Positions 241-35,959 of a DNA stretch of 64,000 nt are shown piece by piece. Position numbers and translations under genes: made by a program. The notes beneath the pieces are model-generated. The model saw nothing but the letters and a program-made list of their open reading frames with translations. It made no database searches and was not told the origin of the DNA. This DNA is from Octopus vulgaris (Eukaryota): the NCBI GenBank assembly GCA_951406725.2, contig OX597814.1, forward strand, positions 49,972,001 through 50,036,000. Reading direction: 5' to 3'. Every line of letters starts with the position of its first letter. The stretch's first letter is position 1.

Positions 241-690
241 TCTGCCACAAAGCAGAGGAACCATGGTGTAACCCACTATGGCGTGGTAAACTTTCAGACC
301 CTAGTCTAGATTGCGAATCCTCTGTATCCCAGGATGTTTCAGCTCTCCACCCGTTAAAAGCCACTGTTTACAGAATGAGGATAACAACGTAGATTTCGCG
401 CCCGTGCAACCGCCAGTCTATCGCGTGTGGTGGATGGATCTTCAAGTTGCAACACGCATTCTTAGTAGCTTAGAGTAGGCTCGAATTAGAAATTATTCTT
501 TGTGGCTAATGGCGTGGGTCCTGATTGAAAGAAGAAGAAGAGAGCAGCAACAGTAACCACAACAAAAACAAAAAATATGTCAAAGCAGTTAATTTCAAAT
601 ATAATTAACTTATATTAATTAGATCAGTATTGTTTTTCCCATTCACTATTTTTACTAATATTTAAACATGTTCCCCAAAAGAATCTTTCT

Positions 691-920
691 TATTTCTGTA
701 TTGCCCACAAGGGGCTAAACATAGAGGGGACAAATACGGACAGACAAGGGGATTAAGTCGATTACATTGACCCAGTGCGTTACTGGTACTTAATTTATCG
801 ACCCCGAAAGGATGAAAGGCAAAGTCGACCTCGGCGGAATTTGAACTCAGAACGTAAAGACAGACGAAAAACTGCTAATCATTTCACCCGGCGTGCTAAC
901 GTTTCTGCTAGTTCGCCGCC
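691..920 (-). mobile_element. tRNA-derived SINE family A, full length with 16-bp TSD
   Basis: Minus strand GGCGGCGAACTAGCAGAAACG ... GAGTTCAAATTCC (B box) ... GCCTTTCATCCTTTCGGGGTCGATAAA; TSD CCAAAAGAATCTTTCT at 675-690 and 921-936. Confidence 0.9.
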
Positions 921-1327
921 CCAAAAGAATCTTTCTGATTAGATTATCACAGAAAAAAAAAAAAGATTAAGTTGAATGAATCAGCAACAAGAGAGGGAAG
1001 AAAATATTATATGGTGTAGGCGTTAGGTTGAAGTTAATAACATGAACATAAAAATATCGGGAGAAGATATTCCTACAACACGGGTGGCCGTTTAATTACT
1101 GATGTAACGTTACACAATATTTAAGGTACGGAACGAATTTCATATAAATGAATAATAGATAAAACTGATATTTTGAATTTCATAAATCTGCAGGTGTCTT
1201 TAATCAATAAAAAACATTTTCCCTTCACTTTCAATTGATGGATTGATTTTAGCTACCAAGCCATCGATGGAAATATATACGTGCTCATGTTCATGCGCGC
1301 ACACGCGCGCACACACACACACACACA

Positions 1328-1370
<43 letters not shown>

Positions 1371-1602
1371 TAATGCTTGTTTTTATGTTCAGTTATAATT
1401 AATCTGATGGGTTACTCTTCGCTTTTGTAGAGAATGTTGTTGAGGCCTGCTCAACGACGATGGCTTAGCTGTTCGACACTTCGAAGTCACTGTCAACAAC
1501 ATACTTATAATATCTATCTATCTATCTATAATATATATATATATATACATTTACATACACACACGTATACACACACAGACACATACACTCACAATATATA
1601 TA

Positions 1603-1655
<53 letters not shown>

Positions 1656-1672
1656 TATATATATATATATAC

Positions 1673-1728
<56 letters not shown>

Positions 1729-1729
1729 A

Positions 1730-2040
1730 GTTCAAATTTACAGAAAAGAAAAGACGAAGACAGGTGTAGGAACAACAAGTAGGTGTATTAGTTTAACGCT
1801 TGGGAAAAATGGAAAAGTCTTTAGCGTTTCGAGCCTACGCTCTTTGGCAGAAAGGAATAAGAGGAAAAATGGAGAGAGAATGAATAAAAACGGAGAAAGA
1901 AAAACTGTGTAGAGTTCAGCGGTCCAACCTGGCGAGATGACTGGGAAAGAAAGAGGCTGAATAAAAGAGAGATAATAATAAAAAGAGGTTGAATGAAAGG
2001 GGCATACCTATAAATACTTACATACGAGGAGAGAGATAGA
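1730..2040 (-). mobile_element. Penelope pLTR-like fragment with decayed minimal hammerhead (1819-1854)
   Basis: Reverse-complement similarity to 16790-16935 (GAGCGTAGGCTCGAAACG..AAAGAC, CTAATACA, CCTGTCTTCGTCTTTT). Confidence 0.55.
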
Positions 2041-2041
2041 G

Positions 2042-2131
2042 AGGTGAGAGAGAGAAAGAAAGAGAGACATATATAAATATATATATATATATATATTTAT
2101 ATATGTCTCTCTTTCTTTCTCTCTCTCACCT
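2042..2131. repeat. Perfect 90-bp palindrome centred on (TA)n
   Basis: AGGTGAGAGAGAGAAAGAAAGAGAGACATATATAAAT...ATTTATATATGTCTCTCTTTCTTTCTCTCTCTCACCT, symmetric about 2086/2087. Confidence 0.95.
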
Positions 2132-2359
2132 GAGCTTGTTAAACCTCTTTATATTCTCAACATACTGTTGTACTTTTTTATGTCCTTAACATGTCCCTGT
2201 TACCAAAGACTGTATATATATATGTAATGTAGCAATTTGCAACAACCAATAATTAACGCAACCAAGCTTCCACTTGTTACTTTTGACAATCTTTATCCAA
2301 AGAGTGAAACCGGTAAAGTAAATAAACATCTTTTAAATTGCATTTTCAAACCTTCTTTC

Positions 2360-2425
<66 letters not shown>

Positions 2426-2614
2426 CCTTCGTAGTGGCGAATATATGTACACACAAGCACACACACGCACAAACAAACAAACACGCACACACACATACAC
2501 ACACACATTTACATATATATATATGTACATATATACACCACTACGAAGTGAATATACATATATATATATATATAGGTTTATATGCATATATTTTCACACA
2601 CACACACACATATA

Positions 2615-2845
2615 TAAATTCACTTGTTTTTTTCCAAGGTATTTAATACTCTTAGGTTGGATTTTGGGGGTCTGCCAGATTTGCACGTCTCAAGTGTAAC
2701 CGGCCGAAACTGTAAGGATAATTTGGAAATTTGACTGATGAGAGAAGACTGCTAATGGCCCGTCCTTGCTTTTTCCTGTCCGTATTTATATCGTCTATCT
2801 GTCCACTTGTTTTATTGTCGTTTGTGTTTCAATTTTGGGATTTAT
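2615..2845 (+). mobile_element. 3' part of (TA)n-associated non-coding repeat (family D)
   Basis: Shares TCTCAAG..TAA.C.GCCGAAA.T...GAT.AT..GG...TTGACTGA.GA with the minus strand of 17100-17190. Confidence 0.5.
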
Positions 2846-3166
2846 ATATACATAGAGCGGCGTAGTACACTTTTGCTCACCTTATATACATATATTTATA
2901 TATTCATACATATGCATACATATCTATATGCGCTTATGCATTTGCATACATATGAATATGTGTATGCATTTGTGAGTGTATGAATGTGTGTGCGCGCGCG
3001 TAGGTTAGTTTACATATTTTACATATATGAAATCAGTAAAATATGTTTTCCTTAAGTTGGAAAAGGAAATAAGAGCTAGTACCAGAAAGGGCAAGGAAGG
3101 AAAATGGAAAATACGAAAGAAAAAGTGAAAGTATATGAAGTATATTTACACACACACACACACACA

Positions 3167-3229
<63 letters not shown>

Positions 3230-3234
3230 CATAT

Positions 3235-3285
<51 letters not shown>

Positions 3286-3299
3286 CAGAGGTAGATAGA

Positions 3300-3740
3300 T
3301 AGATTCGCTTCAGTATCTGTCTGTTTCGGACTGTCTGTGCATAGGGCCCACCCGGACTACTGCCTTTGCTGTGAACAGGAATCAATCTTCTCCCTTCATT
3401 ACTTTGCTCCTTACGGCCTGAAATCGCCACCTCTCTTCATCCAACACCAACTCCACACAGATTCCCATACACCTCTTACATTCAACTGTTCCTCTCTCCA
3501 CCCCACACCGCCTTAGTCGGTACTCCCACTACACACGCCACTATACATATACTCATACACATAGTTCAACTCAGTAATCACATCGCACACCATTACGCAC
3601 ACACACCTTCCCACTCCATACATACTGGCACCCAACAGCTCTCACTACCCACACCACATAACATTATCCACACATCTACATACACTCTTCCATATCTTCA
3701 CCACCACACCACTATAGGAACACACCTACATACTGTAAAT
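3300..3740 (+). mobile_element. Penelope-like element 3' remnant (GIY-YIG C-terminus followed by C/A-rich tract)
   Basis: Translates to ...CEQESIFSLHYFAPYGLKS, resembling the REQxxIxxLxTxxPxGLN end of Penelope GIY-YIG domains. Confidence 0.5.
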
Positions 3741-28301: not shown

Positions 28302-28477
28302 CAGGACCTTTACAATAAGGATAGGAAGGGGCTCATTGCAGTAGTATTTGGAGAGGATGCGGTGCAGGGATGCCCAATCCCTGTACCCGCTATGAAGCTT
28401 TTCTATAGGGTTAGGCTCTCCACTCCGGGCCTTGAGGTGGATCACTCCGACTACTCGTCCTCCTCAAAGGTGGATAA
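28302..28477 (+). repeat. 176-bp copy of R2 sequence matching 32567-32742
   Basis: Manual alignment, 4 mismatches, no indels. Confidence 0.95.
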
Positions 28478-31680: not shown

Positions 31681-32420
31681 TCTGTGAGGTTTTCTTGACA
31701 TGTAGCAATTTCCCTTATGGGTCATATATACATACATGATACTGTAAGGTGTGATTCTTGGGACATGTAGCCGTTATTTCTACCAGGTGAAGATAGCATG
31801 TAAAGATTCTCACGTTGGCCAATACAGGCATATATATATGCACGCACATATATTAAAAAGTTGAGTATGATAAGATGAATTGTTTTCACGTCTCAATAAG
31901 AAGCTTGCATAGCTTACTTACAGAGTAACAGTTAGGTGGATGGGTCTGAAGAAATCTTTTGAAATAATCTGCAGATATACGATTAATTTCGAAATCTGGA
32001 GATCGTTAAATTGTATTATTGAGATGATTGATGTATCAGATCAATACTTATAAGAACTGTGGTGTATATGACTTTTTGGTCAAACTAAAGTGTCTGACTC
32101 GAGCAAAAAATTAATTAAAAATTAGTGTAATAGGTATAAACTAACTTGCTGTAAACGAATATGAAAAAAAAATCGCTCTCGCGAACGGGGTCTGGGGGAC
32201 TCGGAATATTCACATCGTGAATTTTCCGAGTCGTCTCACCACAGAAAAAAAAAATTAGTGTAATAGGTGTACAACAACATGTAGTAAACGAATATGAAAA
32301 AAAATTGTACGCTTGCGAACGGGGGTGGGAGAGAGGTCTCGGAAAATTCACATCGTCAGACAATGACCTTTAAACTCTAGTGTTTGACCGGAGCAAAAAA
32401 AAATAATTAAAAATTAGTGT

Positions 32421-35022
32421 GGAATTCTTTCATTAGAAATGTAGAGGACTGGGTGAAGCATTATAGGTTGCACAGTATGGAGGCTACTAGAGGGTACAAA
32501 GGAACAAAAAATGAGAACCGCTCCAAATTTCGGCGGCGTGAAAAGTTGTTTCGATTTGCACGCCACCAGGACCTTTACAATAAGGATAGGAAGGGGCTCA
32601 TTGCAGTAGTATTTGGAGAGGATGTGGTGCAGAGATGCCCAATCCCTGTGCCCGCTATGAAGCTTTTCTATAGGGTTAGGCTCTCCACTCCGGGCCTTGA
32701 TGTGGATCACTCCGACTACTCGTCCTCCTCAAAGGTGGATAACGATCCTATTTTGCGACCGTTCTCTGGGAAGGGGGTGAAAATTAGTCGGAGACAAATG
32801 AATCCTTTCTCAGCGGCGGGTCCTGATGGACTTAGCGTTCGTGAGGTTAATTCCATGGACCCCTGTATCCTCACCAACGTGTGTAACTGCATGTTGCTGA
32901 CCGGGAAGGTTCCCAATATCCTGTAGCGAGGAAGATCCGTCCTCTATACCTTAGAAGGGGAACGATCCTATGGACGTCACCAATTGGCGACCACTGACGA
33001 TATTTTCTGCGGTGTATCGTACGGATTTATCCGGGCTGATGGCTGCAGCGAGAACTCTTTTCTCCTGCGGCAATTGGTCAACCGAGCGATGGGGAGGCCA
33101 GCACTGCTGAGAATACCGCGTCTAGAGGTGGCTTTCATGGATATCGTCAAGGCCTTCGATACAGTCGCGCACTCGTTGGTGTACGTGGGACTGCGAAGGC
33201 TTAGCTACCACGAGCACGTTATAGCGCTCGTGGAGGGGATCTATGTAAGTAGCGCTACCAGATTCTCAGTCGGTGGGCAACTTAGCGAGCCCATCGAGAT
33301 TTGGGGTGGTGTTAGACAAGGGGACGCACTGTCGCCAGTCCTCTTTAGTATTGCGACCGACCCGCTGTTAGATGTTCTGTCAGACAGCGGAGGTCTCAGT
33401 GTTGAGGGGATCAGAATAGCAGGGCTCGCGTACGCTGACAATTTGGTCCTAGTTGCTGGGTCGCACGATGGTCTCCAAACTCTTGTGGATAGATACCTGG
33501 AGTTCTATCGCGCAATCGGGCTAGGTATCAACATCGGTAAACGTGCGTGATTCTCCATTCGTGGCTGGGACAAGTCCTATCTTGTCAACGATAGCACTCC
33601 GCCGAGTCTCGATGGTATTGCGATGGAAAACGTAGAACTGGGAGAGAAGGTGTCCTACCTAGGACTTTATATTCCTAAATGGACTTCCAGCTCGAGTCGG
33701 GAATTTTGCTTAGATTCAGTGGGGCAGGTGTCCCTGAATATCGATAAGATTTGCAGGGCTCCACTGACACCCCGACAGAAATTCCTCTTGTTACAACAGT
33801 ATTATTTGCTGAGACTATTTCATAGTCTCACGCAGGTGCTACCGTCAAAAGGAATTCTCCTTGAACGGGCTTCAGTGTGGGAGCTAGGCGGATTCTTCAT
33901 TTCCCGGATACCATTTCTTCCTTTCTATATAGCATCCGGCGTGATGGCTGGTTAAGTGTTCACCAGATGGTGAAGATGACCCCCAAATGTGTCATCCGCC
34001 GTAATCTTCGCCTTCTGACGTCGGGATACGCCTCCGTGAAAAAGATTGCTGATTCTGCAGGATTAGCTGAACAGAATCAGCAATTAGTAGCTTCCATCGA
34101 CTTGCCGTTGCTCCCTGCTGACAATACCGAATACGACCCGGACATCCGGCTGGTGCACTCCCATAGATGCACGGGGGCGTGTGCGGCGGTGTTTCGTGGG
34201 AATGCAATTGGCAATAGTTGGATAAGTAGACCGGGTGCTGATTACGGAGAAGTGCTTCTTGAGTTTATTCAAGATGCGCTCCAACGTATTTCCCTCCCGA
34301 GAGATCTTGACACGTGGTGGCCGAGGGGACTTCGCGTGCCCAAGATGTAGTGTAGGGGTGGCGACAATATCTCACGTCAGTGGAATTTGCAGATGCAACA
34401 AAATCTGTAATCTGGTAACGAAAGAAGCTGCCAACTATGGCTAGAGTATCAGCGTGGAGGCTTCGTACATTGTTGGAGGCTCCAGGCTGATACCCGACTT
34501 AGTCTTTAACCATCCTAAGAAAATAGTAGTAGTAGTAGTCGACGTGACAGTCCGGTTGGAGCAGGGAGATGCCTTGAGAGAGGTATCTCTTGAGAAAGAG
34601 CGCAAGTATCGACCGCTCATACCATTGCTGTTTTGTAAGAGTTTAATCGGTCGGTAGAAGTGCATGGACTCCCAATCGGTGCCTGTGGTGCCTGGTGCTG
34701 GCCTGCGAGTGCGACACTAGTTGCTTTGGGCATTAAGGACAGGTCATTCCGACGACTTCTCAGCAGGACGGCTCTCAGCATGAGGATCTTGCGGACAGGA
34801 TCCCTGTATGATGACTAGGAGTAACTAAAATCATAAAATATGACAATAATACCGGATTGACAAAATAGGTGGTTCACATGTACCCTTGGCGGGTTAGTAG
34901 GAGTCTCCCTAGGAATGACACTTTTCTAGTGCCTGCGTTCGTGCGTGTGGCTAATGACGGGGCATTAGTGGGACCGCCCACTATAATCAAAGGGAAAGAA
35001 TTGGCAAAGTCAATACACACAA
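32421..35022 (+). mobile_element. 5'-truncated, frameshifted R2-clade non-LTR retrotransposon (RT + CCHC + RLE + 3' UTR)
   Basis: SAAGPDG, GFIRADGCSEN, FMDIVKAFD, GVRQGDALSP, LAYADN, APLTPRQK, CPRC..TISHVSGIC, IPDLVF, VVDVTV, EKERKY, VHGLPIGACGAW; stop at 34816-34818; followed by the 28S target sequence. Confidence 0.88.
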
Positions 35023-35038
35023 TAGCCAAATGCCCCGT
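35023..35038 (+). other. 28S rRNA R2 target-site downstream flank (15/16 match)
   Basis: TAGCCAAATGCCCCGT vs the conserved 28S AAGG^TAGCCAAATGCCTCGT, at the R2 3' junction. Confidence 0.85.
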
Positions 35039-35959
35039 TTGTTGTACACCTATTACATTATTTTTTTCTTTTTTTTTTGTTCGGGTCAAACACTAAAGTT
35101 TAAAGATCATTGTCTGACGATGTGAATTTTTCCAGTCCTCCCCTACCCCCGTTCGCGAGCATTTTTGTTTTCATATTCGTTTACAGCAAGCTCTTTTACA
35201 CCGACTGCACTAATTTTTAATTATTTTTTTGCTCGGGTCAAACACCTTAGTTTGACCGATTTTTCTTTAAAGATTCAGTACCATATGTTGTTTAAAAAAA
35301 CATTTGAAAAGAAAAAGGAGTTCTTCATAGAATACAAAACCTGAATACAATCCATTTTTTACATATGTAACAAATTATTACAAGGACTACCATTAAAAAA
35401 AATCACTTGGCGCATGCAGACATCTCACCGATTTCCATTGATACAGGAATTCGGTAATGAAGAACTGAAACATTTTGACGTTATATTCATTATTCTTTTT
35501 TGCTTTACATTGTAGTTCATGGAAACTTGGTCCAACCAATAACTGTCGCCAAGTCAGTCAAGTCGATATATTCACTATTTATCGTAGAACTTTTTAGTTC
35601 AATACCTGGTTGTAGGGAAAAAAATTCCTCATGGAGAATGTTCCAGAGAGCTGTAGTTCAGGAATAAATGCGATCAATAGGCAAGTTTAAGGAAGAAACT
35701 CAGTACTCTTAACAAGAGGATGAAATTAAACTTTTGTGCTATAGGATTAGATAGATCTTGATAGAAATATTACACACCTTACCTGTCCAGAAAAGCATAC
35801 AGTGTTGTAGAATAGCAAATAGAAATTGCTGATGAGTGTAGAATAACTCTTCAGCTATGATAACCGATCTTCTTGTTCTTCTTCTTTCCAGGGAAATAAT
35901 GGGTTCCAAGCAGAGGCAACGGGCTGTCAACGAGATCTTTACGAAGAAGGTGCTGCATA

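Follow-up and report, generated by a model that had tools for sequence, protein, structure and literature searches.

R2 retrotransposons normally reside in the ribosomal RNA genes, and Pack-MULE-type elements are terminal inverted repeat (TIR) arms around foreign sequence that moves with them. Here, we describe an element from Octopus vulgaris in which the arms of a DNA transposon, supported by sequence comparison as a non-autonomous derivative of a Merlin family, enclose a dead, 5′-truncated R2 together with 16 bp of its 28S ribosomal DNA (rDNA) target, and which has likely been multiplied as a unit to at least three loci. The window analysed is the whole stretch of 64,000 nucleotides at positions 49,972,001 to 50,036,000 of contig OX597814.1 (assembly GCA_951406725.2).

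Merlin elements (related to IS1016/IS1595) have GG ends, 8-bp target-site duplications, internal tandem arm units and a PF12762 transposase (PMC8101967); the octopus composite shares the ends, the duplication and the tandem-unit arms and has relatives with the same arms that carry PF12762, but it differs in being without a transposase and in that its interior is wholly of another element class. RICKSHA, a mammalian MuDR-type non-autonomous TIR element with a retroelement 3′ part, for which an empty relative exists (PMC1431705, PMC5753468), is likewise a TIR element holding the 3′ part of a retroelement, but the octopus carrier is Merlin and its cargo, present in at least three copies, is a site-specific non-long terminal repeat element with its target junction. 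For hobo_AC of Anolis, quick gain and loss of nested sequence and composites of other copies have been described (PMC3014272); those are autonomous hAT elements, and R2 is not mentioned in the available part of that paper. Copies of R2 outside 28S are known from five Drosophila species, and off-target R1 insertions of Drosophila, which are followed by as many as 14 nt of downstream 28S, have been attributed to the copying of RNA that ended in a short stretch of rRNA (PMC2718515). The octopus copy shares with canonical R2 the reverse transcriptase (RT), the endonuclease motifs and the 3′ junction at 28S +1, but in contrast to canonical and Drosophila R2 it is 5′-truncated, lies within a DNA transposon and was likely multiplied with this carrier. 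R2NS families and fish R2 with a 28S-derived 3′ untranslated region (UTR) also occur outside the canonical setting (PMC5035012) and resemble our case in this and in the 28S-like 3′ end, but the octopus R2 keeps its canonical site (contig C20, see below); furthermore, the 28S tail, which begins at +1, differs in length from copy to copy and is therefore no constant component of the UTR. Unlike in Pack-MULEs, the cargo is a retroelement rather than host gene fragments, and its end resembles an RNA end. In the literature searched, with Repbase and Dfam beyond its scope, we found no description of a Merlin element with an R2 as cargo, and the available parts of PMC13188248, PMC6895275 and PMC13282606 contain no such case.

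Results

The composite occupies window positions 32078-35257 (G000:C1:50004078-50007257) and consists of a left arm, the R2 remnant, 16 bp of 28S and a right arm, in this order (Table 1). The arms form an inverted repeat of 141 nt (32078-32218 / 35117-35257, 80% complementary), with further arm pairs, and GGTCAAACTAA is read inward at both ends. A first-pass annotation, made from the letters of the window alone, had described long inverted arms of ~160-bp units; the long inverted repeats are there, but the units are not uniformly 160 bp long, measuring 133-159 bp and being of two alternating kinds. Its proposal of a degenerate 8-bp duplication is borne out by GACTTTTT / GATTTTTC (6/8 identical), for which the chance of matching this well is 0.7% and 8 is the best-fitting length among 5-11. 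The interior (32421-35038, 2618 bp) had been read as 2.6 kb of R2 without transposase, which is correct except that it also includes the 28S bases. Apart from R2 and these 16 bp the interior contains nothing, host gene fragments included; no remnant of a Merlin transposase was found by tblastn in the window element, and an Rfam search of the window gave no match, the 16 bp being its only rDNA. Base 32420 is compatible with both the arm and R2 (one shared base), and junction microhomology amounts to 0-2 bp.

That the RT belongs to R2, as had been proposed, was confirmed by a PDB search, in which R2 proteins matched with E 1.8e-25 vs 2.5e-4 for LINE-1 (long interspersed nuclear element, LINE). 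The window copy is colinear with approximately residues 440-1276 of the intact 1276-aa open reading frame (ORF) of an R2 in the rDNA of this genome, interrupted by stops and frameshifts; the N-terminal part is absent, the RT part is 48% identical to the rDNA ORF, and the endonuclease pieces align to its C-terminus with frameshifts between them. The motifs at 34226-34657 we take to be a zinc knuckle and a restriction-like endonuclease; a Pfam search gave no match for these pieces. Because of the truncation, stops and frameshifts this R2 is dead in any case, and it is a passenger without the ability to retrotranspose on its own.

Table 1 Features of the composite element, in window coordinates.
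Feature	Position	Strand	Basis or remark
Target-site duplication, left 8-bp copy	32070..32077	.	6/8 same as 35258-35265
Left arm, non-autonomous element assigned to the Merlin family	32078..32420	+	GG end, ~2.3 subterminal units of 133-159 bp; homologous arms around PF12762 ORFs in L184, L186, L188
5′-truncated dead R2	32420..35022	+	~residues 440-1276 of ORF, then 3′ UTR
RT core between two stops	32927..33547	+	RVT_1 E 1.9e-15; best PDB matches are R2 proteins
Putative zinc knuckle and restriction-like endonuclease remains (PDLV...DVT...KY), two frames	34226..34657	+	Translations, tblastn with intact rDNA R2 ORF
R2 3′ UTR	34800..35022	+	Start approximate; motif of genome-wide R2 3′ ends at 34968-34996
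28S rDNA, +1..+16 past canonical R2 site	35023..35038	+	15/16 vs own 28S (L128, Rfam RF02543)
Right arm, inverted	35039..35257	-	~1.4 units; inner edge identical in C4 and C12
Target-site duplication, right 8-bp copy	35258..35265	.	Comparison with 32070-32077

The junction of R2, 16 bp of 28S and arm is shared by three loci on three contigs (G000 C1:50.007M, the window, C4:99.9006M and C12:46.0524M), which account for the 3 of 74 matches in a right-junction search that span it. A pattern search allowing two mismatches gave four matches, three of them real; the fourth (C20:30008548) was discarded as chance, with neither R2 nor arm there. The DNA searches score the best 40 candidates; the composite has at least three copies. 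The C4 composite spans C4:99899332-99909996 (10.7 kb) and that on C12 spans C12:46052102-46059944 (7.8 kb). The three target-site duplications (6/8 in the window, 8/8 on C4, 7/8 on C12) are all different, the 3-kb flanks gave no match of at least 60 bp in 12/12 comparisons, and none of the three composites has a tblastn match to Merlin transposase. Because the same junction stands at two more loci with unrelated flanks and duplications of their own, the composite is likely to have transposed as a unit.

The C4 and C12 copies are ~90% identical and colinear over 4.4 kb up to the junction, including a shared left interior. Their R2 begins at the equivalent of 33197 and is preceded by a SINE-bearing (short interspersed nuclear element, SINE) interior and an RTE-like LINE piece, with an inverted 129-bp LINE piece before R2; the latter was considered as a sequence of the family and rejected, being an inverted bit of a common LINE. 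The window R2 is 85% identical to either copy and contains 0.8 kb more R2, so that the common ancestor would have had at least 2.6 kb of it. The left junction of arm and R2 was found at the window locus only (1 of 62 matches, among the matches listed). The junction search that the first-pass annotation had suggested thus succeeded for the right junction, with different flanks and duplications at three loci, but not for the left one. Either the window and C4/C12 lineages lost different left parts, or the C4/C12 lineage might have recombined with an R2-free member.

For the arm family, the best 40 of 1101 first-look candidates were scored, and PF12762 matches adjoin several of the arm matches. 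Three loci (L184, L186 and L188) combine homologous arms with transposase ORFs above the Pfam cut-off (PF12762, DDE_Tnp_IS1595), among them L186, a complete element of 2.3 kb that has both arms and is flanked by a 7/8 duplication. These transposase-bearing copies constitute a sister subfamily with GGTTAAAC ends and arms ~70-75% like those of the composite. GG stands at both ends in the window and C4 copies, and the left end of the C12 copy is TG; four other complete elements have duplications of 7/8, 7/8, 5/8 and 4/8. The Merlin affiliation suggested at first pass is upheld by the GG ends, the 8-bp duplications and the same-arm elements with PF12762. In L184, two transposase pieces face each other (424-3623), an inverted duplication of the left half. 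Among the best 30 PF12762 loci, 28 are without an arm match and one has a short match only; many other Merlin families therefore exist in the genome.

Within the window's own subfamily, members vary widely in their interior and inner arm edge. A piece behind the left arm, presumably a SINE, belongs to this subfamily. One member (L189, G000:C8:72.08 Mb, 7/8 duplication) contains a PIF1 helicase piece at 2638-3102 that, judged from sequence, probably derives from a Helitron; part of its interior recurs in L194. The interior of L191 is made up of LINE pieces and a transposase remnant. A LINE piece common to L191 and the C4/C12 copies was rejected as a family link; its neighbours differ, and it may represent an independent insertion of a widespread LINE.

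We also surveyed R2 across the genome. An rDNA array on C20 (G000:C20:23.95-24.07 Mb) consists of 18.4-kb units, and the target pattern was found in seven of them, six empty and one with R2. This R2 is 4.75 kb long with an intact 1276-aa ORF that matches R2 proteins (E 3e-157; best PDB entries 9nl2, 9dou (R2Tg) and 9nl3), and three zinc fingers and a Myb-like stretch could be read by eye. It is joined at exactly 0 and +1, and since it sits exactly at the 28S site, R2 is canonical here. A motif of the R2 3′ UTR had 44 matches in the genome vs 2 in the control; four were discarded as likely chance and 40 ends were read, the window included. Only one of these lies inside the assembled C20 array. 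The length of 28S sequence behind the R2 end was at least 230 bp in 10/40 (array copy included, and possibly some stray or unplaced rDNA), 91-212 bp in 4/40, 12-45 bp in 8/40 (among them the 16 bp of the window), 3-7 bp in 7/40 (some of them copies in one tandem array), and none or unclear in 11/40. Relatives join 28S at the same base as the window copy. One dispersed R2 5′ end has only ~10 bp of upstream 28S, as would be expected of a ribozyme-cut RNA. Thus, the window junction is an ordinary member of the short-tail class, and R2 outside rDNA is common in this genome; the first-pass annotation had considered it exceptional, which does not hold in view of these ends and of the published non-rDNA copies (PMC2718515, PMC5035012).

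Several further R2 arrangements were observed. Many types of R2 3′ UTR coexist in the genome. Tandem R2 arrays with a period of ~5 kb lie outside the rDNA array at G000:C18:79.80-79.85 Mb and C29:25.63-25.70 Mb (L035-L038, L142-L144); 60-200 bp of upstream 28S stand in front of some copies, and long ORFs occur in some. In L112, L113, L116 and L121 (~1500), short R2 5′-end pieces follow 28S from ~-10 to +25..+39, past the canonical site. At L217, L223, L230 and L237, R2-like 3′ ends are followed by degenerate 28S +37..+92 instead of +1, recalling the fish R2 with a 28S-derived 3′ UTR (PMC5035012). Finally, a 176-bp copy of R2 bases 32567-32742 (97.7% identical) lies in the window at 28302-28477, 4.3 kb upstream of these bases, set in an old LINE-like stretch with 3-4 bases shared at its left end; its appearance is that of a patch left by local templated repair after the composite had formed.

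Contigs of four runs from four studies (of 24 runs listed) were aligned to the window locus. Among the pieces listed, the left flank-arm end is bridged in 3/4 runs and the arm-R2 junction in 2/4, with 31+ letters on each side, and no piece spans the whole element; the stretch from the R2 3′ end through 28S and the right arm into the right flank is bridged in 4/4 runs, in one with a gap. Both window junctions are thus real. The same contigs qualify the earlier description of the dead copy. Truncation, stops and frameshifts stand, but position 33440 is G (YADD) in four other samples, and the 61 bases deleted at 33020 in the assembly are present in two of the four; because other samples differ, the YADN change and the 61-bp deletion are peculiar to the assembly allele. 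The change from YADD to YADN was also rejected as a mark shared between composites, being a CpG-type change that recurs in free copies and is absent from the other samples.

Discussion

We favour, with a probability of about 0.62, an off-target insertion of R2 into a Merlin derivative near its right arm, followed by transposition in trans and separate internal deletions. R2 in rDNA would be co-transcribed with 28S, its RNA carrying a short downstream 28S tail, as the tails of the dispersed copies suggest. Reverse transcription of one such tailed RNA would have placed R2 in a Merlin derivative, at the inner end of the right arm or close to it, an entry that would have happened once. Still bounded by both GG ends, the composite would then have been mobilised in trans by a Merlin transposase and would have inserted at least three times, on three contigs, producing a separate 8-bp duplication each time. 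The lineages would then have lost different parts of the left interior, so that the window arm meets R2 at 32420 and the C4/C12 copies start at ~33197. Of the two routes named in the first-pass annotation, off-target insertion fits better and Pack-type capture less well, as short 28S tails are common among dispersed R2 ends. Ends clustered near the R2 terminus would be expected if RNA with a short rRNA extension were copied, and random DNA breaks in rDNA would rarely fall that close to the R2 end.

A number of observations weigh against this explanation. The search for relatives yielded transposase-bearing elements but no empty pre-insertion element among the eight R2-free subfamily members (L189, L191-L197), for five of which the far arm lies outside the fetched stretch; therefore, neither the point of R2 insertion nor a duplication at it could be observed. 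The 16 bp of 28S could be what deletion left of a longer tail, 28S tails of 3-4 bp elsewhere may be chance, and the junction microhomology suits either route. In addition, the R2 tree (18 rows; 10 of the 28 copies extracted were omitted because they were near-duplicates or of insufficient length or similarity) groups C4 and C12 with 100/100 support but places the window copy at a polytomy with two free copies, and it stays unplaced with and without CpG columns. A single clade for the three copies is neither rejected nor shown (approximately unbiased test, p-AU 0.49; 16% of bootstrap trees). In 1529 columns, all three copies have five private non-CpG letters in common, vs 20 for C4 and C12, and the window copy shares six and seven private letters with the two free copies. 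As the tree is open, the case for a common origin of the window copy is made by the junction, identical to the base, and by the tail length.

The alternative of Pack-type capture, in which gap repair after Merlin excision switched from the right arm to an R2/28S junction, either in rDNA or in a dispersed copy, and the composite then transposed, we consider unlikely, and it keeps some weight because no empty site was found and the subfamily interiors are patchwork (the PIF1 piece of L189, the LINE pieces and transposase remnant of L191). The inverted LINE piece ahead of R2 in C4/C12, the templated R2 copy upstream in the window and the lack of any half of an interrupted arm 5′ of R2 would likewise suit capture. 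However, nothing would make a DNA template switch halt 16 bp past the R2 end, a dispersed donor would contribute the sequence flanking it, and short tails are the common dispersed form.

It is more improbable still that three R2-free Merlin residents acquired the R2/arm segment by gene conversion or template switching and that the composite was never mobile as a unit. Around the R2 3′ end and the junction, the C4 and C12 copies, at 90% identity overall, match without a difference over runs of 169, 103, 92 and 88 bp, and the expected number of 169-bp identical runs is 5e-6, which suggests later conversion between the contigs, or a polishing error. These runs resemble what conversion would leave, and the left half of the window copy differs; for the C4/C12 pair, however, the colinearity over 4.4 kb with a shared left interior makes copying of the whole element simpler, and two exchanges of several kb between contigs would have to be assumed.

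A secondary R2 target in the Merlin arm unit, used more than once, has very little to recommend it. The tree gives no firm grouping of the window copy with C4 and C12, and the arm sequence TTTAAAGG, a few bases from the junction, loosely resembles the 28S site by eye, but the tail is 16 bp in all three composites and varies in length elsewhere, and none of the 39 other R2 3′ ends abuts an arm despite more than 1000 first-look arm candidates. An assembly artefact or segmental duplication is hardly credible, for although repeat arms are prone to mis-joining and the element is not covered end to end by any listed contig, its junctions are bridged in the contigs of other studies, the flanks are unrelated and the duplications separate, and an artefact is refuted for the window locus.

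Conclusion

The composite, likely multiplied by transposition, is a clear example of how a cut-and-paste element can amplify part of a site-specific retrotransposon, its junction being dated by three separate duplications. Each of the two processes is known, but their pairing is unusual. Because nested cargo in DNA transposons has precedents, the copies, at least three, are old, dead and few in number, and there is no hint of a function, the composite itself is of small importance. On a wider and doubtful reading, which we offer tentatively, Merlin served as the vehicle that carried a then-long, perhaps complete R2 with its 28S junction across chromosomes, and the dispersed ends with tails of 3-45 bp may be a fossil record of the ends of R2 template RNA in vivo, left by R2's own enzyme off target. 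To our knowledge, where the R2 template ends at its 3′ side in vivo is an open question, on which the literature consulted gave no explicit statement. 28S tails raise the efficiency of R2-based insertion (PMC6795142, PMC12203849). The dispersed off-target R2 copies with their graded 28S tails may matter more than the composite, bearing on template 3′ ends and off-target rates, both of which concern R2-based gene insertion.

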